Below are positions 4,974-52,926 of a DNA stretch of 64,000 nucleotides, piece after piece; positions within the stretch are counted from its first letter, which is position 1, and each line of letters opens with the position of its first letter. The DNA lies in sequence record PP434423.1; one strand, given 5' to 3'. The translations under genes were made by a program, and so were the position numbers. The stretch is from Escherichia phage 236Ecol005PP. Under the pieces are notes generated by a model that saw only the letters and a list, made by a program, of their open reading frames with translations, was not told the DNA's origin and ran no database searches.

Positions 4974-5149
4974 CACCCTTTAAGTAAGTCGTAAAATCCA
5001 CCATTCACATGCTTAGGAGCGGAAACTAACCGAATAGCAATCCGATGACAATCAGGACATACATCAGTATCCCTTTCAGAAATTTTCTTGATTTTTTCGT
5101 ATTCTTTTGCACAGTCTTTGGATTGACATTTATAATCATAAAGAGGCAT
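4974..5149 (-). CDS. small zinc-ribbon protein (CxxC...CxxC), below the 60-aa track cutoff
   Basis: hand translation MPLYDYKCQSKDCAKEYEKIKKISERDTDVCPDCHRIAIRLVSAPKHVNGGFYDLLKG; fills otherwise empty gap. Confidence 0.4.
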
Positions 5150-5151
5150 AA

Positions 5152-5571
5152 TTATTCCTTAAAGTGAGCTTTCAACATCTGATACAAAGACCATGCTTGT
5201 TCATTATTTTCAATAGTAACTTTCATTACCGGGAATTCTGTGAAATCTTCTATTTGTTCTTGCTCTTCCTGCTCTTGTTCTTCAGCAGCCTGATATGGAT
5301 TTTCAACTTCATCAAAGAACCCAGCTTCGTTAGTAGAGAGCCAGATAAAGTTTTCATCAAGGATATCACCGCCGGCACAACGTTTGAGTACACCTATGGA
5401 TGTCATAATTTTAGTAGGACGCCCAAGATAATCAGCATCTAAAATTTTAAAAGGCTCCATACCTAAACGTCGTGCATAGATTCCGTTATCAGTATGGTCT
5501 TTAATAAAATTTTCTTGAGCTTGTTTATTTTTAAATTGATACCATTTATTAACTTCAAATTTAATAGTCAT
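5152..5571 (-). CDS. hypothetical acidic protein (goF-like position and size)
   Basis: 139-aa ORF with [10 protein letters not shown] acidic stretch; name by position only. Confidence 0.5.
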
Positions 5572-5786
5572 TAATAAATTTCCTTCCAGTAAGTTGTGCC
5601 ATCTTCAGTAATTTCACGAAATACACCGTAAATTGGCTGTTTATCGCCGACTTTCTCATACACATAAACAGAAGTCAAGTGAGTAAACTTGCTAGTATGT
5701 TCCTTTTGAACTACTACCAAATCTGGATCGAATAATACATCTTCAAATTCGTCATTAGTGCAGTTCTGAACAGTTTTACGTTTCAT
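5571..5786 (-). CDS. hypothetical protein (cef-like position and size)
   Basis: 71-aa ORF, start overlaps downstream gene (ATGA). Confidence 0.45.
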
Positions 5787-5799
5787 TACAATTTCCTCA

Positions 5800-6081
5800 T
5801 TAATTGAACAGTGGAGCGATGCGTTTCAGAAGAGTAGCAGCACCTTTGGCGAATTTTACATCATGAAAAACAGTTTCTTCTTCTGTTACAACACGAACTT
5901 TAATGTTTTCACAATCCCAATTTTTGCGAACAATCTTCAAAAGCTGCAGTAAATCTTTACATTCAGCAATATCGATAACACATCCACGAGAATCTTCCAT
6001 TATCGCACGATAACCATAAGCCATACTATAATCGTTGAAAGACTGTTCGATGATAATTAAGTTTTCCATTTTATTCTCCAA
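5800..6081 (-). CDS. hypothetical protein
   Basis: 93-aa ORF with GGAG SD; conserved early leader TTGGAGAATAAAATG. Confidence 0.5.
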   Translation of the reverse strand: MENKMENLIIIEQSFNDYSMAYGYRAIMEDSRGCVIDIAECKDLLQLLKIVRKNWDCENIKVRVVTEEETVFHDVKFAKGAATLLKRIAPLFN

Positions 6082-7837: not shown

Positions 7838-8521
7838 TTATCGTTTTGTTGGAAGAGAAAGAGGATCGCACTCTTCCTCTGATGGAGCATCTTCAAGACC
7901 CATAGCATATCGCAAAGCATACTTCATCATCAGGATGTCTTTCGCACAGTCATGAATAGAATCATGTGCAACGAATCCATCTAAAGTTCCCTTTGGAAGA
8001 GGACATGTGGTCATATCACGAACAAGCAGAAGTGCTTCAATTCTGGTACGAATATCACGCTGATTCCAGAATTTACATGGTTCTAACTTAAATGTGTCAA
8101 GTTCATTCTCAGAAACGCCATTAAGACGTTGAATATCGCGAATGAGATCGATTAAAATTGGAAAATCAAACGACATTCCACGGCACCAGCCTTGAGATTT
8201 CCAAGGATCGATGTTATGTGCATTGATGTAATCATTAAATTTTACAATACCATCGATAGTGCTTACATCTTCATCTGATGGTGCAATATTTTTTCGAGCT
8301 TCAGGAGATTGATTTTTCCACCATTCGATAGTGCTTTTAGTAAAAAGACGATGTCCTTTTTGGCTTTTTAAATCAAACTTGATTTTAATGCCGCGTGAAA
8401 CTAATTCATCGAATGTTTCAACTACTTCTGGGTTAGGGTCAAAGGCAATAACAGCCAAATCAATAACAGCTGCCTTTTCACCGCTTCCCATTGTTTCAAA
8501 ATCTATAATAAAATCAAACAT
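7838..8521 (-). CDS. dexA: exonuclease A (DnaQ-like 3'-5' exonuclease)
   Basis: FIIDFETMG exonuclease motif; 227 aa from internal ATG matches recalled DexA length. Confidence 0.8.
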   Translation of the reverse strand: MFDFIIDFETMGSGEKAAVIDLAVIAFDPNPEVVETFDELVSRGIKIKFDLKSQKGHRLFTKSTIEWWKNQSPEARKNIAPSDEDVSTIDGIVKFNDYINAHNIDPWKSQGWCRGMSFDFPILIDLIRDIQRLNGVSENELDTFKLEPCKFWNQRDIRTRIEALLLVRDMTTCPLPKGTLDGFVAHDSIHDCAKDILMMKYALRYAMGLEDAPSEEECDPLSLPTKR

Positions 8522-8774
8522 TAATAATCGCCTTATAAAGATGGCTAATTTCACCTAAAATATAATCACTGATTGTAACAGTTTTCACTCTACCGCAAAA
8601 GAATTCTAACGCAGTCAAATCTCGTTCAATTTCTTCCAATTGAAGCATTAACTTACTAGACTCAATTTTTACAGTTTCATAATTTTTACTGTAAGATATT
8701 TCATAAATTTCGCTTACTTTATCTTGAAGCAGATAAAACTGGTCTTTAGTTATTTCCACGAATAGCTTCCTCAA
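8514..8774 (-). CDS. hypothetical protein (dexA.1 position)
   Basis: 86-aa ORF. Confidence 0.45.
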   Translation of the reverse strand: MRKLFVEITKDQFYLLQDKVSEIYEISYSKNYETVKIESSKLMLQLEEIERDLTALEFFCGRVKTVTISDYILGEISHLYKAIINV

Positions 8775-8780
8775 ATTTAA

Positions 8781-10100
8781 TCATACGTAAAACACATCAT
8801 AACGACCACGAGTGACACCAACATAAAGAAGCTGCTGAGCCAATTCAGCGTCTGCATAATGAATACAAGGCGTATAGATAAAAGCACGGTCTACAGACAT
8901 GCCCTGAGCTTTATGGAATGTTGATGCAGGAAGTGCTTTCACTTTACTAAACTGCGATTTAGCATCCCAAAAATCACTCCACGGAGCTTTTCCACCTTTA
9001 TTCCAATTTTTATAAGTTTCTGCCGTTTTACCTAAAAATAGGTTAAATTTATACAGCTCTTCATCAGATGAAATTATTTTAATCTTTTCACGATAATATT
9101 CATCATCGCCGTAAGTTTCTACTGTTAAATCCCAATGACGAATTAGATATTCTCCAGAAACACCACGAGCTTTAACAAATGTTGATGTATACTCTGCTTC
9201 TATAATACGAACTAATTGTCCGTTATTAAAAATAATTTCTGACACAGGCTTTCCATCAATTTTATATGTTTTAATTAATGGTTCCTGCATTACAATAATT
9301 TCACCAACGATAAAATCTTTATCAGTTTCAAAAATCTTTTTACGAATAATGCTATTTAACTTGTCAACAGATTTATTCGTAAATGCCATTACACGATTTT
9401 CAAACAAATCATCTAGTGATTTTACGATTGAAAAATAATTTACCATAAAATCGCGTAAAGCGGTATCACCAGTAAATCCACGTACTCCATGTCCGTCAAC
9501 AATTTTATCATAAATCCACTTACCATTACGAACATCAGTAGCTACATCAATAATAGGAGCATTACTGCGTTTAACTTCAGTGAGTTCACACTGATAAAAA
9601 TCTTTGTGCGTAAAGAATGGACTGATATAAGCAGTGTTTTCTCCTGGGTCAACAGGTCTAATTTGCTTATTATCGCCTATTCCAATTATAGTACACCAAG
9701 GTGGAATAGTTGAAAGCAGAATTTTAAATAGCTTTCTATCATACATTGATACTTCGTCGCAGATTAATACTCTGCATTTAGCCAAATCCGGTACTTCTTT
9801 TTGCTCAAAAAGAACATTTTCTTCGTATGTTACTGGGTTAATTTTAAGAATACTGTGAATAGTACTCGCTTCTTTCCCTGATAGTTTTGAAAGAATCTTT
9901 TTAGCTGCATGTGTAGGAGCTGCTAAAATAATGCCAGTTTCGCCCGTAGATATTAAGGCTTCAATGATGAATTTAGTAAGAGTAGTCTTACCAGTACCGG
10001 CAGGTCCATTAATAGTTACATGATGTTTCTTTTCTTTGATAGCCCTCATAACGATGTTAAAGGCATTTTTCTGGCCTTCGGTCAAATCATCAAATGTCAT
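8781..10100 (-). CDS. dda: Dda DNA helicase (SF1)
   Basis: 439 aa; Walker A GPAGTGKT and SF1 helicase motifs. Confidence 0.9.
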   Translation of the reverse strand: MTFDDLTEGQKNAFNIVMRAIKEKKHHVTINGPAGTGKTTLTKFIIEALISTGETGIILAAPTHAAKKILSKLSGKEASTIHSILKINPVTYEENVLFEQKEVPDLAKCRVLICDEVSMYDRKLFKILLSTIPPWCTIIGIGDNKQIRPVDPGENTAYISPFFTHKDFYQCELTEVKRSNAPIIDVATDVRNGKWIYDKIVDGHGVRGFTGDTALRDFMVNYFSIVKSLDDLFENRVMAFTNKSVDKLNSIIRKKIFETDKDFIVGEIIVMQEPLIKTYKIDGKPVSEIIFNNGQLVRIIEAEYTSTFVKARGVSGEYLIRHWDLTVETYGDDEYYREKIKIISSDEELYKFNLFLGKTAETYKNWNKGGKAPWSDFWDAKSQFSKVKALPASTFHKAQGMSVDRAFIYTPCIHYADAELAQQLLYVGVTRGRYDVFYV

Positions 10101-40701: not shown

Positions 40702-41172
40702 TTAATCATGTTTCCACACCCCATCGGTATTTGACCAAAGTCGCTGATTATCTGAACCTCGCCACAGCTTTTTGGTCGGAAGATTTTTCTCATACTTCCC
40801 ATCAATAATAACATCAACATATTTAAGCATTTCTAGTTGTTTAATATCTTCAAACTTATATCCTGTCCACAACCAAATGCTTTTATTCGGATAAAGATTT
40901 TTTACTGTTTGAACAATGCAATGAACAACATCTCGGTTATCAGGATAAAGAGGGTCACCTCCAGTTATAGTTAATCCTTCTATATAATCATTATTCAAAC
41001 ATTCAATTAATTGTTCTAGTGTTTCACCAGTGAATGGAACGCCATTTCTAGCATTCCAAGTACTACGATTATAACAACCTTCACATTTATGCAAACAACC
41101 TGTAACGAAAAGAACGACCCTGCATCCAGGGCCATTCACAAAATCGCAAGGATAAAATCTATCATAATTCAT
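40702..41172 (-). CDS. nrdG: anaerobic ribonucleotide reductase activating protein (radical SAM)
   Basis: 156 aa; CLHKCEGC radical-SAM cysteine cluster. Confidence 0.9.
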   Translation of the reverse strand: MNYDRFYPCDFVNGPGCRVVLFVTGCLHKCEGCYNRSTWNARNGVPFTGETLEQLIECLNNDYIEGLTITGGDPLYPDNRDVVHCIVQTVKNLYPNKSIWLWTGYKFEDIKQLEMLKYVDVIIDGKYEKNLPTKKLWRGSDNQRLWSNTDGVWKHD

Positions 41173-42448
41173 TGGTGTTTAACCCTATGCATGATTTCTT
41201 TATTTTTGCCGAGATTAAATCCACGTTCGTTCGGATTTCCCAAATAACCACAAGTTCTTCTTATTGTGTTCATCTTTTTAGGATCAGTTTCTCCACAAAT
41301 AGAACAAACAAATCCGTTTTCAGTAGGAGTCATTTCATGAGTGCTTCCACACGTAAAACATTTATCTACTGGCATGTTAACACCAAAATAATCTAAATGT
41401 TGTGCAGCATAATCCCATACAGCCTCAAGACCTTTTAGGTTATTTTTCATATCAGGAAGTTCAACATAAGAAATGTGACCGCCTGTTGCAATGAAATGAT
41501 ACGGGGCTTCGCGAGAAATCTTTTCAAACGGAGTAATATTTTCTTCTACTGAAACGTGGAAACTGTTAGTGTACCAGCCTTTATCAGTAACATCCTTTAC
41601 ACTTCCATATTTTTCTGTATCAAGTTTACAGAAGCGATAGCAAAGGTTTTCAGCAGGAGTAGAATACAAGCTAAAAGCAAAACCGGTTCTTTCAGTCCAC
41701 TGCTTAAGACGAGCATTCATTTTAGTTAAAATTTCCTGTCCAATATCACGACCGACAAGAATATTCAATTCGTGAATACCAATGTATCCTAGGGACACTG
41801 AACTTCTACCGTTTTTAAATAACTCAATTATGTCGTCATCAGGTTTAAGACGAACCCCGAATGCACCTTCTTGGTAAAGAATAGGAGCAACAGTCGCTTT
41901 AACTCCTTTTAAGGAACTAATTCTACACATCAATGCTTCAAAACACAAATCCATTCGTTCATTGAACAATTCGGCAAATTTCTGTTCATTGAACTGTGTT
42001 CCAATATAAGAATCTAATGCAATACGAGGAAGATTCAGTGTTACAACACCAAGATTATTACGTCCATCAAGAATTTCATTACCAGTCGAATCTTTCCATA
42101 CGCCCAAGAAACTACGGCAACCCATTGGAGAAACAGGAATAGATGAACCAGTGATAGCTTTATTGTTCTTAGCTGAAATAATATCAGGATACATTCTTTT
42201 ACTTGCACACTCTAGAGCAAGCTGCTTAATATCATAGTTCGGATCGTCTTTATAAAGATTAACACCTTCTTCAACGAACATAACAAGTTTAGGGAAAATA
42301 GGAGTTATCCCATCACGACCAAGACCTTTAATACGATTTTTCAGAATTGCTTTCTGAATCATTCGTTCAGTCCAGTCAGTTCCCGTACCAAATGTAATTG
42401 TTACAAAAGGCGTTTGTCCGTTAGAGCTGAAAAGTGTATTTACTTCAT
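41169..42448 (-). CDS. nrdD: anaerobic ribonucleotide reductase NrdD, exon 2 (boundary approximate)
   Basis: glycyl-radical enzyme C-terminal region with C-terminal Cys cluster; 3' splice site placed after a G at 42449 so exon1+exon2 = 605 aa. Confidence 0.65.
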
Positions 42449-42474
42449 CATTATATTCAGCATGAGTCGCAAAT

Positions 42475-43246
42475 TCATGCCCGTTTATATGAAACAACAA
42501 AATTTGGATAGTCCATAGATATGCAACGTTCTTTTATAGTGCTAGGATGAAAATTTAGCGCTTTAGCTGCTTCTATATAAGACGTATACTTAATACCGTC
42601 AACAACCACATATTCAGGAACTTTATGAATAGTAGCCTTAATACTCAAAACAAGAGGATGAGTTTCGACTTCACTTTCAGTGCAATTTAAATATTCCGCT
42701 GCTTTTTTAAAACTTCTAAAAGTTTTATTTTTAAGCTTTATCGATACTTGTTTTTTACTTTTTCGACTATTGATATTATTTTGCACATGTTCCTTAGATC
42801 TTCCGTTTTTAGCATAATATTCAGCTACAGAAGATTTTATATTGTTTTTATGAGATTCGGATAACACTTTACCCTTATGAGCATCTCTTAATTTTTGAAT
42901 ATGTTCCTTCAGTATCCGGATGCTTATAAAACTTTTTACCGCCTATGGATTTATTTAAACATTTTTTGCTATAAAAATATTTACGTATGACCTCTTCTTC
43001 ATGTTTTAATGCATCTTTATAACTATCAAATGTTTTTAAAATTATCCATTTAGTAGGTGTATCAGTTTTTAAGCGTTCATTTATATACTTAGATGACGTT
43101 GTGTAAGTTTTCCAGTTTGTGGGCTTGTTTTTAATTGTTCTAAATTTTTTATAACCGATATAAATGTCGCCATTAGAAAACTTAACTAAGTATGTAAATG
43201 CGTCTTTATCTTTTATTTTAGTACAACGTCTTTTTATCCATTTCAT
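42475..43246 (-). pseudogene. intron-encoded GIY-YIG homing endonuclease (I-TevII-like), apparent frameshift near 42925-42935
   Basis: N-terminal GIY-YIG ORF (123 aa) and C-terminal ORF in adjacent frame; joined length about 257 aa; shift at GGTAAAAAGTTTT run. Confidence 0.55.
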
Positions 43247-43275
43247 TGTTTCACCTCGTATTCATAAGATAATCT

Positions 43276-43283
43276 TATTTATA
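43276..43283 (-). promoter_or_regulatory. late promoter TATAAATA inside intron, upstream of endonuclease ORF
   Basis: plus tatttata about 30 nt upstream of ORF ATG at 43246. Confidence 0.5.
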
Positions 43284-43494
43284 CAAGATGACTGCTGCAT
43301 GTCGCCATGCAGATTAGACTATATCTTCATCTTTCGATGCCGGCCGTTTCGAATAGCATTAGCTTCTATTCTACACCGCTACATTCATCACGGTTAGTCG
43401 TTAGGCATTTAGTTCAAAAGAACATTTAGCACGGGATTGTCTACTAGAGAGGTTCCCCGTTTAGACCGGTTTTACATGAGCCTGAATTAAATTA

Positions 43495-44032
43495 ACTCAT
43501 ACGCCTGGAATGCATCGTATACATCTTTTTCTGTTTTAGATTGGGCATAATTCAATGCATCTGCGATTTGCCATTTTTCCGCGTCCTCAATATGTTTCGC
43601 ATAGGTGCGTTTAACATAAGGAGAAAGTACTTTATCTACATTCGCAAAAGTCGTTCCGCCATATTGATGAGAAGCAACCTGTGCAGTAATTTGTGCCATA
43701 ATTGCAGTAGCAACGCCGATTGATTTAGGGGTTTCAATCTGTGCATTACCGAGCTTAAATCCGTTCTCAAGCATTCCTTTTAAATCTACTAAACAACAAT
43801 TAGTAAATGGAAGAGCAGGGGAATAATCAATATCGTGGAAATGGATAATTCCGCTTTCATGCGCTTTCATAATAAAAGACGGGACCATATTTTTGGCAAT
43901 GTGTTTAGACACAATACCAGCCATAAGGTCCCGTTGAGTTGGAAAAACACGAGAATCTTTATTAGCATTCTCGTTTAAAAGGTCTTTATTAGTTTTATGA
44001 ATCAATCCTTCAATTTCTTTTTCAATTGTCAT
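43495..44032 (-). CDS. nrdD: anaerobic ribonucleotide reductase NrdD, exon 1 (boundary approximate)
   Basis: N-terminal 179 codons; in-frame stop lies just inside intron. Confidence 0.65.
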
Positions 44033-44502
44033 TTTAAACTCTTTCTAAGCTGCTTCTTAAATGAAGCTATTAATTGTGTTTTAGTGTCAGATTCATTATA
44101 TTCAAATCCTCTTTGAAGCATCTCAGCCATCATTTCCTCTTTTCCTAAACGAGAAAATTCCTTTGATTTATCTCCAACAAAGTTAGGGTGAATATTATTT
44201 TGGGTGTAATCGGATTTTAAATAAGTAAGTAAATTTTCTAACCATTCAAGATAATCAACACCTTGTCCCTTTAAGCCAGAACGATTGAATTTATGCTTCA
44301 TTTGACCTTCTGCAGCATTACAGAGATTACATAGCAACCCACGTACCTTTCCTGCTTTTGGTCCATTTAATTCATGGTCATGGTCAAGGTGATTAGCTTG
44401 AACATCAGGATTTAGTTCTCGTTGGCAAATTAAGCATTTACCGTTTTGTGCATTATAAAATTTTTGTTTTTCTTCTTTGTATAATTTGCCAGTCAATAAC
44501 AT
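44029..44502 (-). CDS. 49: endonuclease VII (Holliday junction resolvase)
   Basis: 157 aa; Cys/His zinc site (CLICQ ... HLDHDH ... CNLCN). Confidence 0.9.
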   Translation of the reverse strand: MLLTGKLYKEEKQKFYNAQNGKCLICQRELNPDVQANHLDHDHELNGPKAGKVRGLLCNLCNAAEGQMKHKFNRSGLKGQGVDYLEWLENLLTYLKSDYTQNNIHPNFVGDKSKEFSRLGKEEMMAEMLQRGFEYNESDTKTQLIASFKKQLRKSLK

Positions 44503-44544
44503 AATAAAACCCTTACCTTAAATAGATAAGGGTATTTATTATTT

Positions 44545-44721
44545 TCAAGTATTGTAAAACATTCGATGCAATCGCTTATATTGTCGAATCATCTTTTTAG
44601 TAGGACGAGAATAAGTTCCTACACAAGTAGTCATATTAGGGTCTGTAGAATTTCCTTTAATAAAAAGTTTCCAAACCTTACTACCATTTAGCTTTTCAGT
44701 ATAAATCAATTCAGTTTTCAT
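44545..44721 (-). CDS. small hypothetical protein (sub-threshold ORF)
   Basis: 58 aa MKTELIYTEKLNGSKVWKLF... Confidence 0.3.
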   Translation of the reverse strand: MKTELIYTEKLNGSKVWKLFIKGNSTDPNMTTCVGTYSRPTKKMIRQYKRLHRMFYNT

Positions 44722-45182
44722 TAAAATGCTCGGTCAGAAAAAGAAATTTGAGTTTCAAGCCATTCAATATATTCTGCCGCAGCTTGCATCAAATTTCCTT
44801 CATAACCATCGTTGTTTTCTTGTGCAGCTAATTTAGCTAATGCATATGAAATGCGTTCACCTTGAAAAGCGGCTTTAGGTTTATGAATAGCTTGAACTCG
44901 TTCTACGACTTCTTCAATTTCGCCATTTTCTACTGATTCAGTATTCCACAAGCACCAATACGTAATTGGCTTATCGTAAATGTTAATAATCTTTCCATCA
45001 GAAAGTTCAATTTCAATAATTCCAGTATCAGGTTCTATATCATCTTCACATTCTTTTACAAGTTCACGAACTTTAAAGACAGTACCTGCACTAAGTTCAG
45101 GCCAGTAATTACACAGCCCTTTATCAGCACGATTAATTCTAAACCACTTATCTACTGTAATCATGTCCCATCTCCATATCAA
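44721..45182 (-). CDS. hypothetical protein
   Basis: 153-aa ORF. Confidence 0.45.
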   Translation of the reverse strand: MIWRWDMITVDKWFRINRADKGLCNYWPELSAGTVFKVRELVKECEDDIEPDTGIIEIELSDGKIINIYDKPITYWCLWNTESVENGEIEEVVERVQAIHKPKAAFQGERISYALAKLAAQENNDGYEGNLMQAAAEYIEWLETQISFSDRAF

Positions 45183-45287
45183 TTATGTCATTTATTGTAG
45201 GTTCATTATATACTGTTTCTTCATCAGTGTAAACCGGTTCTTCCGGCTCTGGCTCTACTGTTTCCCATCTAGCCGCCCACCAGGGTT

Positions 45288-45608
45288 TTATAGCGTAATC
45301 CATTCTCGTATTGTCTGAGTTACTACACGTTCACGGGGCTCGACTAATTCAACAGTCGGAACTGCATAATACCAGTCAGAATGGTAAGAACCTGAACGAG
45401 ATTCATTTACGGAAACATGTACGTTATGTTTTGGACTAAAATAAACACACTGCCGATATTGGCATTTGCCGTCTTGCACCCAGTCTTCTATTTCGACAGG
45501 TTTAAGATAATCGGAAAAATCGAAATCATAGTTTTCTGAAAATGCATCATGGTCTTCGATGATTTCACTCAGAACTGCATCAACATCTAATTTATTTTCA
45601 ATAGTCAT
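45288..45608 (-). CDS. hypothetical protein
   Basis: 106-aa ORF. Confidence 0.45.
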   Translation of the reverse strand: MTIENKLDVDAVLSEIIEDHDAFSENYDFDFSDYLKPVEIEDWVQDGKCQYRQCVYFSPKHNVHVSVNESRSGSYHSDWYYAVPTVELVEPRERVVTQTIREWITL

Positions 45609-45618
45609 TTGTCACCAC

Positions 45619-45789
45619 TTAATTTCGCAATTTATTAAGTTCTTCATAATCAATCCAGGATTCTAATCCTGATGGCAAATCAGATTCAATTTCCCAAAGA
45701 AGCTCTTCAATTTTCTGAAGACGATCTAATTCTTCAGCTGGAATAGTAACCATTGACGGAGTTCTTGATACACTAATATCATAAATCAT
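45619..45789 (-). CDS. small hypothetical protein (sub-threshold ORF)
   Basis: 56 aa MIYDISVSRTPSMVTIPAEELDRLQ... Confidence 0.3.
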   Translation of the reverse strand: MIYDISVSRTPSMVTIPAEELDRLQKIEELLWEIESDLPSGLESWIDYEELNKLRN

Positions 45790-45791
45790 AT

Positions 45792-46007
45792 TTACCCCAG
45801 TTTAACCATGCAATCGCCATATTTCCATTTAGAAATAGACTTTTCACCGTTAGAATAATAAACTTCGAGTTTAGCGCGGCCATTTTTAATTTGAATAACC
45901 TTTGCTGTCATCAAAGTTCCATACCCGTAATAAACTGCAACCTCATCACCTACATATACCGCGCTTCCGCGGTAGTCATGGATATAATCAGTTCCTTCAA
46001 GCATCAT
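45792..46007 (-). CDS. hypothetical protein
   Basis: 71-aa ORF. Confidence 0.45.
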   Translation of the reverse strand: MMLEGTDYIHDYRGSAVYVGDEVAVYYGYGTLMTAKVIQIKNGRAKLEVYYSNGEKSISKWKYGDCMVKLG

Positions 46008-46267
46008 TTAAAGTATTCCCGCAATTGGTCAAATCCACCAATATGACTTCCATCAGGAGCAAATACCTGAGGCATCGTCAATCCGGTTTGAGTATCACGA
46101 CCTAGTTTAGTCAGAAGCTCAGCGATTTTCTCATCATCAAAAACACCTTTTTCCGGCATAATATTGATAAATTCAAACGGATGTTTTTTCACAGTCAAGA
46201 GACGTTTTGCATTATCGCAATACACACATTTATGGATGTTGCTATCATAACCATATACTTTAAACAT
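46004..46267 (-). CDS. nrdC: glutaredoxin (T4 thioredoxin)
   Basis: 87 aa MFKVYGYDSNIHKCVYCDNAKRLL... with CVYC active site; matches recalled T4 NrdC. Confidence 0.9.
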   Translation of the reverse strand: MFKVYGYDSNIHKCVYCDNAKRLLTVKKHPFEFINIMPEKGVFDDEKIAELLTKLGRDTQTGLTMPQVFAPDGSHIGGFDQLREYFK

Positions 46268-46268
46268 A

Positions 46269-46511
46269 TTATTCCTTAATTCCTAGTACTTGTTTAAAAG
46301 TCTCGTCGTAATCAAGACTTTGACCTGTTTGTTCTTTATGTTTGTATATAATATCACTTACTTCTGATAGCATATTTTTATATGAACGAGTTAAAGCAGA
46401 TTTAAGCACGCTATATCTATCAGGAAATTTACCGTGTTCATTATAATACGCTATTGCTAATTCACGGACTGCCTTTTCAGCAGTCTCCATATATTCTTTA
46501 CGCTTGGTCAT
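46269..46511 (-). CDS. hypothetical protein
   Basis: ORF from internal ATG ([13 protein letters not shown]...). Confidence 0.4.
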
Positions 46512-46794
46512 TTTCTTCTCGGTTAAATCGGTGTTTGCAATGACGGCATTTATAACGAAGATTACTAGTCTGCCAATGGACCAATTGAACCTGTTCAGTA
46601 CCGCATTCAGGACAATTAGGAACGTTTTTAGAAGCCCTTTCGCGACGTTCAACCATAGCCATAATAGCATCCCAAGCAGGAGGTTTAAAGTCTAGATCGT
46701 CAGTAACTAGCAGTCCTTTATCAAACCCAGCGCATGGAGTCCATTCAGGAAAATCTGAAGCTTCGGCAATATCTTCTAATAAACGCTTTTTCAT
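46498..46794 (-). CDS. hypothetical zinc-finger-like protein
   Basis: 98 aa; CPECG ... CRHCKH. Confidence 0.45.
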
Positions 46795-47717
46795 TTCAGC
46801 ACCTCAATAGCATCACGTAAACCATTTGCTTTGGCGGTTAAAGCCTTAATAACTTTAGTATGCTCTTCAATCTGTTTTTCAACTTCAATCAAACGGGCAC
46901 TGAGATATTCGCGTTCTTCTTTCATAGTATCATTTCCATGATTAGGCTTTGGCGTAGGTTTAAATTTACTAGGGTCCTTTAACTTAATAACAACTTTAGT
47001 TTCAAACAGTGAAAGACCATAATTCGTATTATCATCAAAGGATTCAACTACGTCCATTTTAGACAATAACGTACGAAGATTATAAGTCAAAGAGCGAATC
47101 GTTTTATTATGTTTATTAGCTTCACGCGGTTTCATATATGGAAGATTTTTATATATTTCGTGTGGAGCACAAACAATAATTGACAATTCAAATGGTCCAT
47201 TCTGTGATGATGGAACGAATTTAGCCGTAACCCAATCTTTTACATTTACATTAATAGTACGGTCATCGCCATGACAAAACAGTCTACGAGAATGCTTAAA
47301 AAGCATATTCACATTATTATTAAATTCATGTGAAAACTCACTAGCAAATTTTTCTTTACTATTTTTAGAAAACCATTCTTCTAAATAAGTTCTTTTCACG
47401 TCATTAATAATATTAAATGTAACAACATTAGCATTTGATACATTAGTCTCAATGTAGCTTGGATACATAAATTTTTTAACATTATTAACAGCTATCACAG
47501 AAGATAGTAATCGAGAACGTTTGAACCACTCTAGCAAAGAACCAAGAGAATGTGAATACGCATTTTGTGTATCTTTACAAATATGGTTTTCCCATCCAAT
47601 ATAGTCTAAAAAATCACGAAGAATATTATTGATTACTGCTCTATGTCCTATCTGATAATTACGATGTTTAGTAATAAGACTGTCAAAATAATCAATATAA
47701 TGTTTACGAGTTTTCAT
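46791..47717 (-). CDS. hypothetical protein with C-terminal coiled coil (paralog family member A)
   Basis: 308-aa ORF. Confidence 0.5.
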   Translation of the reverse strand: MKTRKHYIDYFDSLITKHRNYQIGHRAVINNILRDFLDYIGWENHICKDTQNAYSHSLGSLLEWFKRSRLLSSVIAVNNVKKFMYPSYIETNVSNANVVTFNIINDVKRTYLEEWFSKNSKEKFASEFSHEFNNNVNMLFKHSRRLFCHGDDRTINVNVKDWVTAKFVPSSQNGPFELSIIVCAPHEIYKNLPYMKPREANKHNKTIRSLTYNLRTLLSKMDVVESFDDNTNYGLSLFETKVVIKLKDPSKFKPTPKPNHGNDTMKEEREYLSARLIEVEKQIEEHTKVIKALTAKANGLRDAIEVLK

Positions 47718-47769
47718 GTTCTTCTCACTTGGTTAATGATTTATACTCCGAGCCATCCTTGGCTTTAAA

Positions 47770-48771
47770 TTACTTAATTAACTGTAAAGCTTGTTCAAGA
47801 CGATCCAGACGATTAACAGATTCTTCCCAAATCCTTTTAGCCTGCTCATATTCTTTCTGTGCTTTATTAGAAATTTCTAGAGCTTCTTTATAAGCTTTTT
47901 CTAATGCAATAACTTCTGGACGAATTTCTACCGGTTCAGGCGAATCATCAAGATTATCCATTAGTTCCTCAAGTGTAGTTTCTTCTTTAGGAGTATTCAC
48001 AATTTCATCACATTTTTGTTGGTAAATTTCTTTATCAGTCGGTGAATAAGCACATTTCACTTCACGAAGACTAACTACAATTTTATATCCTTCCCAACCG
48101 CATATATTCTTAAAAGGATACGTATGAATATTTTCTACTGTTTCCATACAAAGTAATGCGGTTTCTAATTGACGAGTTATAGTGCTAGCAATTGAGAAAA
48201 ATTTATTAATGTTCTTTTGGCTAGTTTCTGGTGTAAAAAATCCATAATTCACAAAAATAGATACTTTATTTTTATCAAGTTCATATTCTTTTATGATAAT
48301 CATATCAGAAGCCAAAGGATGAATTTGACGATAATCACCATAGCATAATTTAGAAGCTGATTTTAGAATTTGCTTTTTGAAAAGTCTGAAATTACTAATC
48401 CAACGACGAGTAAAAATATTCTCAGGGTCTTCTTTATTATTAAGATGATAAGAATTAACATCACCGAACCAATTATATCCTACTACATCTTTGGTTCGTT
48501 TAATTTCTTTCCCAAAATTACCAAGAATATCCCGATTAACCAAATATGAAAGAAGACGAGACTCTTTAAAGGTTTTCTTGATAACATCTTTATCTACACG
48601 ACTAGAAATTTTACGAATTTCATGAATAAATTTAGTAGAAGAAACAATACCTGCATCAACACTATTGAGCCATTGATTGATAATAGAAATAACGCTATTT
48701 TGACCAAACATCGGTATAGCTTTATCATCAATAACACTATTGAATGATTTGATATATTCGTTACGAGTCAT
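47770..48771 (-). CDS. hypothetical protein with C-terminal coiled coil (paralog family member B)
   Basis: ATG at 48771 (MTRNEYIKSF) with GAGGAG SD, downstream of early promoter. Confidence 0.5.
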   Translation of the reverse strand: MTRNEYIKSFNSVIDDKAIPMFGQNSVISIINQWLNSVDAGIVSSTKFIHEIRKISSRVDKDVIKKTFKESRLLSYLVNRDILGNFGKEIKRTKDVVGYNWFGDVNSYHLNNKEDPENIFTRRWISNFRLFKKQILKSASKLCYGDYRQIHPLASDMIIIKEYELDKNKVSIFVNYGFFTPETSQKNINKFFSIASTITRQLETALLCMETVENIHTYPFKNICGWEGYKIVVSLREVKCAYSPTDKEIYQQKCDEIVNTPKEETTLEELMDNLDDSPEPVEIRPEVIALEKAYKEALEISNKAQKEYEQAKRIWEESVNRLDRLEQALQLIK

Positions 48772-48796
48772 ATTAATCTCCTCAGTAGAAAGTAAG

Positions 48797-48832
48797 AACA
48801 TTATACCACATCCTTGTGGCAAAGTAAACTAG
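48797..48832 (-). promoter_or_regulatory. T4-type early promoter, near-identical to the one at 2415-2450
   Basis: plus gtaaac 48824-48829, attata 48800-48805; palindromic spacer ccacaaggatgtgg. Confidence 0.55.
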
Positions 48833-49857
48833 TTCAGTGCATTTAGTGCATTGTTCAGTTTAGAACGTTGCTTTGTCAGATTTTGAACCCTTGACTGAGC
48901 TTGTTCTAGCATCTTTTCAGCTTCTAGCACTTCATTAGTTGCTTTAACGAGTTCATCATCTACTGCCTTAAGAGACTTCTCAATCGCATCAGCATGCCAT
49001 TTTTCAACAGGTTTAAGACTCGGATTTTCAGTAGGAAGAAAACTCACTTTATTAAGTTTACATGCATCTATATTGCTTGAGCTATACATCCAAAATTTAG
49101 GATCGTTTGATGAGTAATTGGATAAATTTAAATTTAAGTTATCTTGCACTTCCTGCTTTTTCTCTTGCGTGACTTCGTCCTTTCTCAAAAAATCGTATTT
49201 AAATGAAACGATCATATCAAGTTCATATGTTGTTGTGTCTAATTTAAATCGTTCGAAATGTTGTGAAATCTTAGACTGAACAGCGGCAACAACATCCATA
49301 TACTTAAATGCTTCTGTCAACTGCGATTTAAGGCATTCGCAAATTGAAAGAGAATTTTTTGTATTAGGTTTAAAGCTAATTCGTGCAGTTCTGTTATTTT
49401 CTTTTAATGGTCTTACTTCCATCTGAAGAGTATAACCATCAAATTTCAAGTTCTTTAAGTTAATATCAGAACCTTTTAATCGACTCGCAGTTGATAAAAT
49501 TTGCTTTAATTGTCTACGGAACAGAGCAATAAATCTCCATTCAATACGATAATGATTTGGATTGAAAAATCCAGATGATAAATCGACCTTACTTTGACCA
49601 ACGCCTTGAACAAATAGAGGATTTTTATAATCAATAGTTTTACAGAAATCGGTGAGCTGCTCACGAGCCGTCATTTGTGTAATATACCCTGCTTTATTAA
49701 AATTACGCACCCATTCACTGCTATTCGTATACTTAAAGTGATGAATAACACGATTAACTTTATCAGGGTCTAAATTATTTTCACACAAAAATGTCATAAC
49801 ATCACGAGTATAACTGGCATTACGAACCATATCTTCAATTTGAGAACGAGTTTTCAT
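48829..49857 (-). CDS. hypothetical protein with C-terminal coiled coil (paralog family member C)
   Basis: 342-aa ORF. Confidence 0.5.
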   Translation of the reverse strand: MKTRSQIEDMVRNASYTRDVMTFLCENNLDPDKVNRVIHHFKYTNSSEWVRNFNKAGYITQMTAREQLTDFCKTIDYKNPLFVQGVGQSKVDLSSGFFNPNHYRIEWRFIALFRRQLKQILSTASRLKGSDINLKNLKFDGYTLQMEVRPLKENNRTARISFKPNTKNSLSICECLKSQLTEAFKYMDVVAAVQSKISQHFERFKLDTTTYELDMIVSFKYDFLRKDEVTQEKKQEVQDNLNLNLSNYSSNDPKFWMYSSSNIDACKLNKVSFLPTENPSLKPVEKWHADAIEKSLKAVDDELVKATNEVLEAEKMLEQAQSRVQNLTKQRSKLNNALNALN

Positions 49858-49865
49858 GGTGTTCC

Positions 49866-50756
49866 TTAAGATTTAAGTAAATCAACAATTTTAATTAACT
49901 TTTCACGCTCAGATTTAGCTTTACTACTCAATCCAGATAGTCTGAAAATTTCATCGTCATATTGTTGAATAGAAATATTCAGCTCTTCAATCTGCTTATT
50001 AAAATAATCAATTTGTTCAGAATGTTTTTCGTTACTACGAACTGGTACAGGTTTCGTAGGCAATGTAGTTGAACTGGATTCATTCGGGCGATAAATTAAA
50101 ATACAACTTGAACCAATAGGGCATTTTGCACCAGATGAATATTCTAATGTTCCAGCTTCTTTTAAAACTTCAAAAGCTAAACAGAGATGATGCCCCATAT
50201 TAACATAATCTGTAGAGCGAGCTCTGATGTAATAATCATCTCCACGAATACTAAATTTAAAGCATTTAAGGTCTTCTGTATTATTGGTCTTAAAAATCAT
50301 TTGTTTATCTAGACCTTTAGCTAATCGAGCACCTAATGCTAATAATCGTCGTTGATTTTCCCACAAATCCGTTATCATTTGATCGAATGATAATTTTGGC
50401 ATTAGTCGACCATAAAGGTCATATCCTTTATTATAATTACGAAGGATTTCGCTCGCATTAATACGAGACAACGCTCCAATTTTATTAAGGGCTTTCATAA
50501 TGCGATTAGATAAACTCATTCCAGACCCGGTTGTTCGCTGCAAATGTTTTTCTAATCCAAATCCAATATCAACTTTAAACTTATCTAAAATTTCTGCATG
50601 AACATCTTTGTCGATAACATTCAAATCCAAAGTTGGGTTAAATCTATGAAAAAATTTATCTGGCTCTCCACGGCGAAGTACAGTCCATTCATTCATCATT
50701 TTTTTATTAACTAATGATTTAATTACTGCATTGACATTATTAATTACTACTGACAT
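49866..50756 (-). CDS. hypothetical protein with C-terminal coiled coil (paralog family member D)
   Basis: ORF from ATG at 50756. Confidence 0.45.
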   Translation of the reverse strand: MSVVINNVNAVIKSLVNKKMMNEWTVLRRGEPDKFFHRFNPTLDLNVIDKDVHAEILDKFKVDIGFGLEKHLQRTTGSGMSLSNRIMKALNKIGALSRINASEILRNYNKGYDLYGRLMPKLSFDQMITDLWENQRRLLALGARLAKGLDKQMIFKTNNTEDLKCFKFSIRGDDYYIRARSTDYVNMGHHLCLAFEVLKEAGTLEYSSGAKCPIGSSCILIYRPNESSSTTLPTKPVPVRSNEKHSEQIDYFNKQIEELNISIQQYDDEIFRLSGLSSKAKSEREKLIKIVDLLKS

Positions 50757-50763
50757 ATTTTCC

Positions 50764-51171
50764 TCACTCAATTTCAATTTTACTAAATACACAGAATATG
50801 ATTGAACAGACTACATAAGCGCCACACACGGATTGAACTAATACCATTCCAAAGAACCAAACAATATTATCAAACAGTGTCTGTTTTACGTCGAAAGGAC
50901 GTAAACTTACAGTAATATTATCACCCTTTTCTATTGAAGAATACATCTCTGGGGAAATATATTCACTAAATCTATAACCGTCTTTGAGTTCATATACGGC
51001 AATAAACGATAAACTAGACCCTTTTCCTTGTGTTCCTGTAATGGTATTAACTACAGTAACATCATAATCTTTATAATGCATATAATCATTAATTGCGTAA
51101 TAACCGTATGCAACTACTACACATAAACAGCATATCAATAAATTCAATCTTTTAATTATCAACTGTTTCAT
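50764..51171 (-). CDS. membrane protein
   Basis: 135 aa with N- and C-terminal hydrophobic segments. Confidence 0.5.
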   Translation of the reverse strand: MKQLIIKRLNLLICCLCVVVAYGYYAINDYMHYKDYDVTVVNTITGTQGKGSSLSFIAVYELKDGYRFSEYISPEMYSSIEKGDNITVSLRPFDVKQTLFDNIVWFFGMVLVQSVCGAYVVCSIIFCVFSKIEIE

Positions 51172-51232
51172 AATAATAATAATCTCAATTAAAAGGGCTT
51201 AGAACCATTATACCATCCTTGGTATAAAGCGG

Positions 51233-51760
51233 TTATGCGAGTACCGTCTTTAACCGTTCTTCAAACTTCCGAAGAGTATTTTGGCGTTCAGCTCTTTGCT
51301 TTTTGTAAGTTTCAATACGCTCTGAAATGAGAGTGTATCGTTCATTTACTGATTCTTTCATAAAATCAGGAATTTCACGAGAAGCTTTAATCTCATCAAA
51401 TTTATCAATAACAGCTTGCTCTTCAGCAATTAAGTTATCATACATTAAAATATCTTTCTTGATGAACTCAATATCTTCTTGAGTTACACGAGATAATTTA
51501 GATGCTTTATCCTTTTTGTACTGTTCGTTAGTATCACGAGACCAGTGTAATGTACGATTTTTATTCGTATTCTTGTAAATTTCTACAATACCAATTTCAT
51601 CAATAATAACGATCCAATTCCAACGGGATTTGTAAATTTGTCCTCCATCAACTGTGATTTCACCTCCGATTGAGATGTCGTTAAAGAACTTACTCTGTGC
51701 TTCAGATTTAAATTTACCATCGTTGTAATTTACCAAGTTGAAAATATCTTTAGCGTTCAT
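51233..51760 (-). CDS. hypothetical protein
   Basis: 175-aa ORF with GGAGG SD directly downstream of early promoter. Confidence 0.5.
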   Translation of the reverse strand: MNAKDIFNLVNYNDGKFKSEAQSKFFNDISIGGEITVDGGQIYKSRWNWIVIIDEIGIVEIYKNTNKNRTLHWSRDTNEQYKKDKASKLSRVTQEDIEFIKKDILMYDNLIAEEQAVIDKFDEIKASREIPDFMKESVNERYTLISERIETYKKQRAERQNTLRKFEERLKTVLA

Positions 51761-51785
51761 TTTGTGTTCCTCCGTAGTTGATAGT

Positions 51786-51821
51786 TGTATAGTACCACAG
51801 AGGAACAGTCTTGTAAACCAC
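51786..51821 (-). promoter_or_regulatory. T4-type early promoter (GTTTAC / TACTAT)
   Basis: plus gtaaac 51813-51818, atagta 51789-51794. Confidence 0.5.
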
Positions 51822-52135
51822 TAAAAGAAACTTCTTTCACAATTTTTTCCACTGAACCATGCGCTTACCGCTTTCTTAGTCTTGGGAGCAGTGTTATCCA
51901 TAAACCATTCAAAGGCAGCCTTTTTATGATTCTGGAGGGCTTCTCGGGCTTTAATCTGCTCACGGTCTATTAACACTAACATATGAGCCTTTCTTGTCAC
52001 CATGGGCTTCTTATGATTTTTTGAATACTCCCAGTCATTTGTCCATCGCATTGTTGTTGCGAATTGAAATACAGCTTCTTTAATTTTAGTTTCGTAAATT
52101 TCACGAGCCTTTGAGTATAACATCACTACCTCCAT
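51821..52135 (-). CDS. hypothetical protein
   Basis: 104-aa ORF. Confidence 0.45.
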   Translation of the reverse strand: MEVVMLYSKAREIYETKIKEAVFQFATTMRWTNDWEYSKNHKKPMVTRKAHMLVLIDREQIKAREALQNHKKAAFEWFMDNTAPKTKKAVSAWFSGKNCERSFF

Positions 52136-52206
52136 TCACCAGTTTAATTCTAGTCATCTTTTTGATGGCAGTCCATATAATCTATTTCTGAACTGCCTTT
52201 TTTGTC

Positions 52207-52926
52207 TTAGGATTCTTCTAAATGTCTTTTCTGAAAAGTTGATACCATACTACGATACGGTTCATTTGGATATCCGTGTTTTATAGCTTCCTTTGTAAAT
52301 TTTCTCCATCCATATTTAGTTTCTTTCCAAAGCTCGAATAATTCATCTTCATACTGCCATATAGTTAAATGAGAACGCTTTGCAGCTTTAATTCCATTAA
52401 TATGCTTTTCTTTTACTGCAGGATTGCTTAGTTTCTTTTTAATAATATTACTAACTTTTCTAACAAAAACTGGGTCCTTATATCGTTGCGAAGTTTTTAT
52501 TGAAGTGTTTAATTTAACTTCCGGCGTGGATGTAACCTCTTTCATCTTTTTCTTCATATGCTGTATATGATTAGGATTTTTCCATAAATTTATAGAATGC
52601 TTTTTGCATTTTATCCTAGTTTCATCTGCAACCTTTCCTCCTTCACCCCCGTATGACAGGTTAACACAGTTTTTTCCATATTTCAATTTACCTGCCATGA
52701 TATATAATATTTCAGCTTGTACCATTTTATCATAATTATCAAAAACTTCTAAAACCGTTTTTGATAATATGTGGTCATTTGACACTTTTACACGTTCTAT
52801 ATAATTTCCACTACCAACATACGAATCATTGATGTTATTAGTTATATGTCGACCATAATAGTATTTCTTAATACCTGTCTTTAAATTTAATATTTCAGTT
52901 TTATAGATAGTAAAATATTTTTTCAT
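52207..52926 (-). CDS. GIY-YIG homing endonuclease-like protein
   Basis: 239 aa; KYYYGRH ... SYVGSG motif and basic C-terminal half. Confidence 0.55.
   Translation of the reverse strand: MKKYFTIYKTEILNLKTGIKKYYYGRHITNNINDSYVGSGNYIERVKVSNDHILSKTVLEVFDNYDKMVQAEILYIMAGKLKYGKNCVNLSYGGEGGKVADETRIKCKKHSINLWKNPNHIQHMKKKMKEVTSTPEVKLNTSIKTSQRYKDPVFVRKVSNIIKKKLSNPAVKEKHINGIKAAKRSHLTIWQYEDELFELWKETKYGWRKFTKEAIKHGYPNEPYRSMVSTFQKRHLEES

Follow-up and report, generated by a model that had tools for sequence, protein, structure and literature searches.

How did four neighbouring genes of similar size, each encoding a protein that ends in a coiled-coil-like helix, come to lie in tandem in a phage genome, and what might they do for the phage? 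The question arises at nrdC.3, nrdC.4, nrdC.5 and nrdC.6 of Escherichia phage 236Ecol005PP (sequence record PP434423.1), from which a stretch of 64,000 nucleotides was analysed; this whole stretch is called the window here. For one of the four a phenotype is on record: T4 nrdC.5 supplied in trans restores infection by a deletion mutant on Escherichia coli carrying dsr1 (Srikant et al., 2022; PMC9391042). We find that the four are tandem paralogs that have diverged from a single gene specific to T4-like phages, and we consider what this kinship may mean for the members whose role is less clear.

The Locus and Its Four Genes

The window belongs to a Tequatrovirus, with a nucleotide identity of about 96% to T4. 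The 4-kb stretch of interest is 96-97% identical in DNA sequence to more than 460 T4-like genomes, T4 among them, and the annotation of T4T maps four minus-strand open reading frames (ORFs) one-to-one onto nrdC.3 to nrdC.6. The array is part of the nrdC-mobD accessory region and is flanked by nrdC.2 and by the membrane-protein gene nrdC.7. A sequence-only reading of the window had placed four tandem ORFs here, and the ORF list bears out their positions:

46791..47717, minus strand: nrdC.3 orthologue (308 amino acids, aa), 95.8% aa identity to T4 NrdC.3; phrog_1435, E 7e-101
47770..48771, minus strand: nrdC.4 orthologue (333 aa), 96.7% identity to T4 NrdC.4; phrog_1435, E 2e-168
48829..49857, minus strand: nrdC.5 orthologue (342 aa), 95.6% identity to T4 NrdC.5; Pfam DUF7235, E 8e-121
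49866..50756, minus strand: nrdC.6 orthologue (296 aa), the most diverged member; phrog_2257, E 2.5e-151

The same reading had carried the array out to 50792, which merely extends the nrdC.6 ORF to a GTG. The mechanical ORF list takes nrdC.6 up to this GTG and nrdC.4 up to a TTG at 48822. The likely start of nrdC.6 is ATG 50756, because the T4 annotation has it there and a GAGGAA ribosome-binding site precedes it. Similarly, nrdC.4 probably starts at ATG 48771, since a GAGGAG lies upstream of this ATG and the TTG at 48822 falls within a putative promoter:

48800..48829, minus strand: putative T4-early-type promoter (GTTTAC, 17 nt, TGGTATAAT) in the nrdC.5-nrdC.4 spacer, upstream of nrdC.4; scan score 10/12, extended -10, sequence read directly

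We take this element to be a promoter from its likeness to the T4 early promoter consensus. A TATAAAT at about 47740-47746 (minus strand), in the nrdC.4-nrdC.3 spacer, resembles a late promoter and adjoins a small hairpin.

One Family, Visible at the Level of Profiles

The databases keep the four proteins as three families. NrdC.3 and NrdC.4 both belong to phrog_1435 and PF26897 (Phage_T4_Y04OP), and all NrdC.4 homologues carry the precomputed PF26897. NrdC.5 belongs to phrog_2351 and DUF7235 (PF23882), which it matches over model positions 1-307 of 307 with 403.6 bits against a cut-off of 30. NrdC.6 belongs to phrog_2257, and all its homologues carry the precomputed PF26899. When the DUF7235 hidden Markov model (HMM) is run against the other ORFs, NrdC.3 scores 10 bits in its C-terminal helix (E 0.52), and NrdC.4 and NrdC.6 give nothing. 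As these three miss the DUF7235 model, the kinship is visible only at the level of profile-profile comparison or structure. It should be added that many GenBank records label NrdC.3 to NrdC.9 'thioredoxin', a label that seems to have spread from the gene name nrdC; no thioredoxin-family Pfam model matches any of the four proteins.

Pairwise BLASTP is nearly silent as well. NrdC.3 and NrdC.4 form the one significant pair (24% identity over 273 residues, E 3e-5), NrdC.5 and NrdC.6 show no significant match to the other members, and identity between paralogs is 12-24%. For more sensitive comparison, family alignments were built from three large-database searches and the ORFs of fetched loci, and the profiles were compared by hhalign. 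NrdC.3 and NrdC.4 are then linked with a probability of 98.6% (E 1e-15, 211 columns), NrdC.4 and NrdC.5 with 91% (E 1e-6, 249 columns), and NrdC.5 and NrdC.6 with 59% (E 9e-5, 86 columns). Merging the first three profiles raises the match to NrdC.6 to 91% (E 9e-7, 144 columns). Thus the profile alignment that the sequence-only reading had proposed as a check links all four proteins.

The decisive link for NrdC.6 comes from phages that have one gene only. Other Tevenvirinae genera carry, at the same locus, a single gene of 315-336 codons, which we found by synteny. The set consists of gp89 of Citrobacter phage Moon, QEA10564 of Enterobacter phage IME523, KpV477_087 of a Klebsiella phage and the genes on two metagenomic contigs. 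Because these orthologues bridge the groups, NrdC.6 can be tied to the rest: the IME523 protein matches both the NrdC.6 HMM (3e-10) and the NrdC.5 HMM (4e-7), and the profile of the five sequences matches NrdC.3, NrdC.4, NrdC.5 and NrdC.6 at E 5e-8, 9e-11, 2e-14 and 1e-9, respectively. The match to NrdC.6 is nearly full length (96.4%, E 1.3e-9, 211 columns). A metagenomic protein, P0238, likewise matches the NrdC.5, NrdC.4 and NrdC.3 HMMs about equally.

Could the similarity be compositional, the four ORFs being unrelated families that look alike in an AT-rich genome with a coiled-coil bias? The three separate Pfam families and three PHROGs, the failure of BLASTP to connect NrdC.5 or NrdC.6 with the others, and the lack of NrdC.6 relatives among the library-wide matches of the merged profile at E 1e-3 or better all lean that way. 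The profile matches, however, are collinear and located in the globular part, and they survive removal of the C-terminal 55 residues (NrdC.3-NrdC.4 still 1e-14, NrdC.4-NrdC.5 still 5e-7); they are therefore no effect of coiled-coil composition. Controls fail as they should: reversed profiles of the pairwise families give E 0.05-0.85, merged NrdC.3+4+5 against reversed NrdC.6 gives E 0.03, the reversed controls of the single-copy profile give E 0.13-0.58, and the neighbours NrdC.1, 2, 7, 8, 9 and 11 score E 0.04 or worse against the family profiles. With bridging sequences at hand, and with an identical order of secondary structure and shared structural neighbours (below), we regard a compositional origin as very improbable. 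That the similarity might be no more than composition, or the ORFs members of unrelated families, was the outcome under which the sequence-only reading would have given up its proposal, and the profiles and controls contradict it.

The family is tiny and restricted to phages. In a library-wide HMM search, the NrdC.3+4+5 profile retrieves 18 proteins among 1.84 billion representatives; no NrdC.6 relatives are among these 18 matches at E 1e-3 or better. The neighbour NrdC.8 (175 aa, phrog_2274; 51233-51760, minus strand) also ends in a Glu/Lys/Arg-rich, coiled-coil-like helix. It was considered as a fifth member and rejected, its match (E 0.04) being confined to the helix.

A Shared Motif and a Predicted Common Build

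A central motif had been read from the letters as common to the proteins, and hhalign indeed sets its three versions, FRLFKKQILKSASKL (NrdC.4), FIALFRRQLKQILSTASRL (NrdC.5) and ENQRRLLALGARLAKGL (NrdC.6), in register. In the form F/W..F....IL..ASRL.G it sits in a helix hairpin of both models discussed next:

49474..49545, minus strand: NrdC.5 residues 105-128, motif-bearing helix hairpin (model helices H105-115 and H117-128)

In this motif the columns conserved across the superfamily are, in NrdC.5 numbering, F109, F113, I120, L121, R/K126, L127 and G130. Apart from the motif's R/K126 and G130, a proline that precedes the final helix and the L..A(L/I).LK at the very end, the conserved columns of the superfamily are hydrophobic. 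The alignment columns hold no conserved polar residue of the catalytic type, and the hypothesis that the proteins are enzymes was therefore rejected. A likeness of N-termini, noted earlier for two of the proteins, extends to three groups: T3 and R4 are invariant in 28 NrdC.3, NrdC.4 and NrdC.5 sequences. NrdC.6 is without this motif.

AlphaFold2 models were made of NrdC.5 (predicted local distance difference test, pLDDT, 69.7; predicted template modelling score, pTM, 0.54) and NrdC.6 (pLDDT 77.4, pTM 0.65) only. The two models, which take up the structure prediction suggested by the sequence-only reading, have their elements in identical order, a beta-beta-alpha-beta-beta unit included:

N-terminal helical region: NrdC.5 4-69; NrdC.6 3-107
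Two-helix hairpin with the motif: NrdC.5 105-128; NrdC.6 124-145
Beta hairpin: NrdC.5 144-162; NrdC.6 166-179
Helix between the beta hairpins: NrdC.5 169-185; NrdC.6 187-200
Second beta hairpin: NrdC.5 190-219; NrdC.6 205-222
Disordered linker: NrdC.5 224-284; NrdC.6 227-242
C-terminal helix or helices (also DSSP): NrdC.5 286-341; NrdC.6 243-272 and 277-295

The linker is best seen in NrdC.5, where it is poorly conserved:

49006..49188, minus strand: NrdC.5 linker, residues 224-284 (pLDDT <50; 20-25% identity to distant orthologues)

When the models are compared by Foldseek with the BFVD, both find full-length matches among uncharacterised proteins of about 300-375 residues from T4-like phages. 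Targets common to both come from Klebsiella phage Mineola, Citrobacter phage Merlin and Erwinia phage Cronus (E 2e-7 to 4e-4), and the NrdC.6 model additionally matches proteins of Acinetobacter phages Acj9, Acj61 and fHyAci03. Judged by element order, shared BFVD neighbours and the profile matches, NrdC.5 and NrdC.6 may have the same fold. The models point to a common build, in which a globular part (about 220 residues) is followed by a disordered linker that varies in length and by a C-terminal helix; the helix is amphipathic, about 50 residues long, and ends in L..A(L/I).LK. A sequence search of the PDB matched no solved structure; matches to caspase-3 p12 (E 0.5-1) were judged noise.

Taken with the profiles, the results suggest a superfamily that unites the three database families with the single-copy genes of Moonvirus, Kanagawavirus and Jiaodavirus and, by structure, with genes of T4-like phages of Acinetobacter, Erwinia and Serratia.

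The C-Terminal Helices

All four proteins had been described as ending in heptad-like segments, and a crude heptad score does peak in the last 30-60 residues of each (z = 2.2-4.1 against shuffles). The conserved hydrophobic columns of these segments are also spaced heptad-like. The segments are as follows:

46794..46931, minus strand: NrdC.3 heptad-like segment, about residues 263-308 (heptad z = 4.0 at 278-305)
47773..47916, minus strand: NrdC.4 heptad-like segment, about residues 286-333 (windows 290-330 above the 95th percentile of shuffles)
48835..49002, minus strand: NrdC.5 C-terminal long helix, residues 286-341 (DSSP; pLDDT 78-89; heptad z = 4.1)
49872..50030, minus strand: NrdC.6 C-terminal helices, residues 243-295 (DSSP 243-272 and 277-295; heptad z = 3.9)

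A generic coiled coil would be expected to be sloppy in sequence. The opposite holds here: the C-terminal helix is the best-conserved segment within each orthologous group. In seven of eight comparisons it is about 62-85% identical, against 23-62% for the globular part. The helix of NrdC.5 has 66% identity to P0057, an orthologue that is 39% identical overall. NrdC.6 and its distant orthologues share 61-69% in the helices and 31-41% in the globular part; the corresponding values for NrdC.4, whose C-terminal segment hhalign aligns with the NrdC.5 helix, are 62-67% vs. 37-50%. The deeply diverged alleles of NrdC.3 (below) differ in the same way, with 85% identity in the C-terminal segment vs. 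62% in the globular part. The one exception is NrdC.5 against its 23%-identical orthologue in MN01, where the helix falls to 38%, yet even there it is the best-conserved segment of the pair.

Copy Number and Natural Variants

Comparison of copy number across T4-like phages, another check that the sequence-only reading had named, shows one, three or four copies depending on the genus, the single copies being at the same locus. A search for the NrdC.3 locus in viral contigs gave two loci only, and tblastn of a phage collection was used instead.

Moonvirus, Kanagawavirus, Jiaodavirus and two metagenomic phages: 1 copy, a single gene
Mosigvirus: 3 copies, NrdC.6-, NrdC.5- and NrdC.3-like
Dhakavirus and Gaprivervirus: 3 copies, NrdC.6-, NrdC.5- and NrdC.4-like; the NrdC.5-like gene is split in phage SP18
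Tequatrovirus: 4 copies, NrdC.6, NrdC.5, NrdC.4 and NrdC.3

Together with the profiles and the predicted fold, this series supports the earlier proposal of serial duplication and divergence of one ancestral gene.

The array is unstable, as natural deletions and fusions attest. Phage ACG-C40 keeps only nrdC.6, together with an N-terminal fragment of nrdC.5 and a C-terminal remnant of nrdC.3 (locus L009, 5802-6213). Phage Pinarejo has lost nrdC.6 save its last 47 codons (locus L010, 6001-6141). In the protein P0056, residues 146-270 of NrdC.5 are fused in frame to residues 135-308 of NrdC.3, and Salmonella phage Manna (H85) has NrdC.4 reduced to its C-terminal 83 residues.

These variants bear on the idea that NrdC.3 to NrdC.6 assemble into a single hetero-oligomeric complex, joined by their C-terminal helices and serving a single shared function. 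The idea draws on the heptad-like helix with terminal L..A(L/I).LK at the end of all four, on these helices being the most conserved parts, and on the adjacency and common orientation of nrdC.3 to nrdC.6. A fixed complex is hard to reconcile with a copy number that varies from one to four among genera, with ACG-C40, which has NrdC.6 only, or with Pinarejo, which is without it. Moreover, the helices differ strongly between paralogs, and nrdC.5 singly in trans restored infection on dsr1 hosts, although the mutant may still carry the paralogs. We hold such a complex to be improbable.

Alleles and Selection

Tequatrovirus carries two deeply diverged alleles of nrdC.3, with 63% aa identity and a dS (synonymous divergence) of about 0.9-1.1 compared with about 0.1 in the flanking genes. 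The window type (46791-47717) is found in 139 phage records and the other type in 359; further examples lie at 5001-5930 of locus L007 and 8287-9216 of locus L010. So high a dS amid near-identical Tequatrovirus genomes points to allele replacement by recombination.

The ratio of nonsynonymous to synonymous divergence (dN/dS) is 0.06-0.31 for NrdC.3 to NrdC.5, 0.04-0.11 for NrdC.6 and 0.01-0.07 for gp49 and NrdC.8. Judged by these ratios, NrdC.3 to NrdC.5 evolve faster than their neighbours and under purifying selection, and the genes are functional.

A Probable Role Against Host Defence

What, then, is the family for? The clearest lead is NrdC.5. Besides the rescue by T4 nrdC.5 in trans, deletion of dsr1 in ECOR17 restored infection, and cloned dsr1 shielded MG1655 from the same phage clone (PMC9391042). 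Dsr1, a defence protein that depletes NAD, carries an Avs7-type sensor and is activated by a phage major capsid protein (PMC13581612). The sequence-only reading had ventured that tandem genes of this kind are host-interaction or anti-defence factors; this part of it stands for NrdC.5, where the experiment was done with the T4 allele (PMC9391042), whereas for NrdC.3, NrdC.4 and NrdC.6 we infer it.

The reading that we favour, with a probability of about 0.55, is that the family consists of early, non-enzymatic binders that block host immune sensors, and that an arms race has multiplied the paralogs. The proteins would be made early, from sigma-70-type early promoters, and NrdC.3 to NrdC.6 would act as stoichiometric binders without catalysis. 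The C-terminal helix would supply oligomerisation or a fixed docking contact, and the faster-evolving globular part would bind a host immune sensor and block it. Blocking would precede synthesis of the late structural proteins that trigger the sensor, the trigger of Dsr1 being the major capsid protein. NrdC.5 would be directed at Dsr1, and its paralogs may each cover another defence protein or sensor variant. The arms race would be reflected in duplications that raised the copy number from one to three and then four, in allele replacement and in frequent loss.

Several observations weigh against this reading. The sole experimental phenotype in the family is that of NrdC.5, obtained with the allele of T4; that of the window shares 95.6% identity with it. 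Direct binding of NrdC.5 to Dsr1 is not reported in the literature found, and the mechanism could be indirect. Neither PADLOC nor NCBIfam HMMs matched any member, giving only sub-threshold coiled-coil noise (BrxC, PgrA), and no solved structure matched any member by sequence. The dN/dS values are below 1 everywhere, so that positive selection is not demonstrated. NrdC.6 is conserved like ordinary genes, at 95-99% identity in 446 Tequatrovirus records, which would be less expected of an arms race than of a housekeeping-like role. Finally, the oligomeric state is a guess from the heptad pattern. The literature searched does not mention nrdC.3 or nrdC.6, and nrdC.4 appears there only as the site of a single-nucleotide polymorphism.

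Some of these points are also what commends a narrower explanation, in which NrdC.5 alone is an anti-defence protein. The other three would have diverged and taken on unrelated tasks early in infection, for instance in host takeover or in regulating proteins of the phage or the host, or they would be partly redundant leftovers. The experimental data concern nrdC.5 only, NrdC.6 is highly conserved within Tequatrovirus with its dN/dS of 0.04-0.11, and a paralog identity of 12-24% is divergence enough for a change of function. What speaks for a common role is that all members share architecture, locus and the specifically conserved C-terminal helix, and that loss and replacement between close relatives are typical of accessory counter-defence genes. 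Purifying selection on all four genes argues that they are not decaying. We consider the narrower explanation unlikely, if still the most serious competitor to a family of sensor-blocking binders.

Neighbouring Genes

The region around the array has further features, all on the minus strand where a strand is given. Adjoining nrdC.3, NrdC.2 (98 aa, 46498-46794, minus strand) has a CxxC...CxxC zinc-ribbon signature with sub-threshold matches to Pfam zinc-ribbon models, and its gene overlaps nrdC.3 by 4 bases. A 133-aa ORF (46269-46670, minus strand) overlaps nrdC.2 and contains nrdC.1. Two small ORFs (56 and 71 aa; 45619-46007, minus strand) take the place of T4 gene 49.3 (102 aa), and the pin-nrdC interval also differs from that of T4.

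On the other side, a gene for a 239-aa homing endonuclease (52207-52926, minus strand; phrog_314, E 2.6e-30, no Pfam match) occupies the place of T4 nrdC.10, between nrdC.9 and nrdC.11. Its end overlaps the ATPase-like nrdC.11 by 4 bases. Homing endonucleases recur at nrdD (41169-44032, minus strand), which is split into an exon-1 ORF at 43487-44032 (181 aa) and a downstream ORF at 41169-42500 (443 aa). The insert of about 1 kb holds two ORFs, 42875-43246 and 42475-42867, both of phrog_314. The insert resembles the T4 nrdD intron, with an I-TevII-like endonuclease gene that seems to be broken; an Rfam scan of 41000-52500 at gathering score gave no match and no intron model.

Significance

The genes themselves and the NrdC.5 phenotype were already known. 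The superfamily, its architecture, the series of one, three and four copies and the counter-defence candidates are modestly new. The literature found reports no phage protein other than NrdC.5 with a specific action against Dsr1, and NrdC.3, NrdC.4 and NrdC.6 now become three concrete counter-defence candidates in the best-studied phage. For mutagenesis there is a domain map, with a variable globular head, a disordered linker and a conserved C-terminal helix. The copy-number series and the deep nrdC.3 alleles are natural material on the expansion of counter-defence repertoires. We also suggest that the three Pfam/PHROG families be merged into one clan.

Comparison with Known Systems

The closest comparison is T4 NrdC.5 itself. 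The window orthologue lies in the same place, between nrdC.6 and nrdC.4, and matches DUF7235 over its full length; it differs from the T4 allele, for which the anti-Dsr1 activity is known, at about 15 residues and by two residues in length. The study that reported the activity did not describe paralogy with NrdC.3, NrdC.4 and NrdC.6, nor the mechanism (Srikant et al., 2022; PMC9391042). The databases, for their part, already join NrdC.3 and NrdC.4 in PF26897/phrog_1435, but they keep NrdC.3/NrdC.4, NrdC.5 and NrdC.6 as three families of unknown function.

A more distant likeness is to tail terminator or completion proteins (lambda gpU, T5 p142, SPP1 gp17-like, DUF3168), at an identity of 5-13%. 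It rests on a predicted model and is not seen with the model of NrdC.6, and in Pfam at E up to 1 the four proteins match no tail family. Tail terminators lack the N-terminal helical region, the linker and the C-terminal helix of the NrdC family. Furthermore, nrdC.3 to nrdC.6 are early genes that the phage can do without, and their place is the early nrdC-mobD region and not the tail module. A role for the four proteins in the virion or its assembly, as relatives of tail terminators with no part in immune evasion, is hard to credit.

The same likeness admits a different thought. The tail terminator itself triggers an Avs family, which allows a reading of the NrdC proteins as decoys of structural proteins. 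They would then be early proteins derived from, or mimicking, a virion protein of the tail-terminator fold, each paralog plugging a different sensor of late structural proteins (Dsr1/Avs7-type or other Avs). The C-terminal helix would build an oligomer imitating the assembled target, and the increase from one to three to four copies would track sensor diversity in Escherichia. Against this, the NrdC.6 model gives no tail-terminator matches, the fold is an alpha/beta sandwich of a common kind, and Dsr1 is known to be triggered by the capsid protein. We find the decoy idea doubtful.

The internal proteins of T4 offer a parallel of another kind. IPI, IPII and IPIII are paralogs; they are packaged in the capsid and not made early after infection. 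Like nrdC.3 to nrdC.6, their genes are non-essential, variable and lost in compensatory deletions, and IPIII is needed on ECOR17. They are unrelated to NrdC.3 to NrdC.6 in sequence.

In mode of action NrdC.5 might come nearest to DSAD1 of phage SPbeta, which inhibits the sirtuin DSR2. DSAD1 is described as acting on the defence protein itself, with no replenishment of NAD. The two defence proteins differ in what they sense: DSR2 responds to the tail tube protein, Dsr1 to the major capsid protein by way of its Avs7-type sensor. What DSAD1 and NrdC.5 have in common is that each counteracts a SIR2-domain NADase that a late structural protein triggers.

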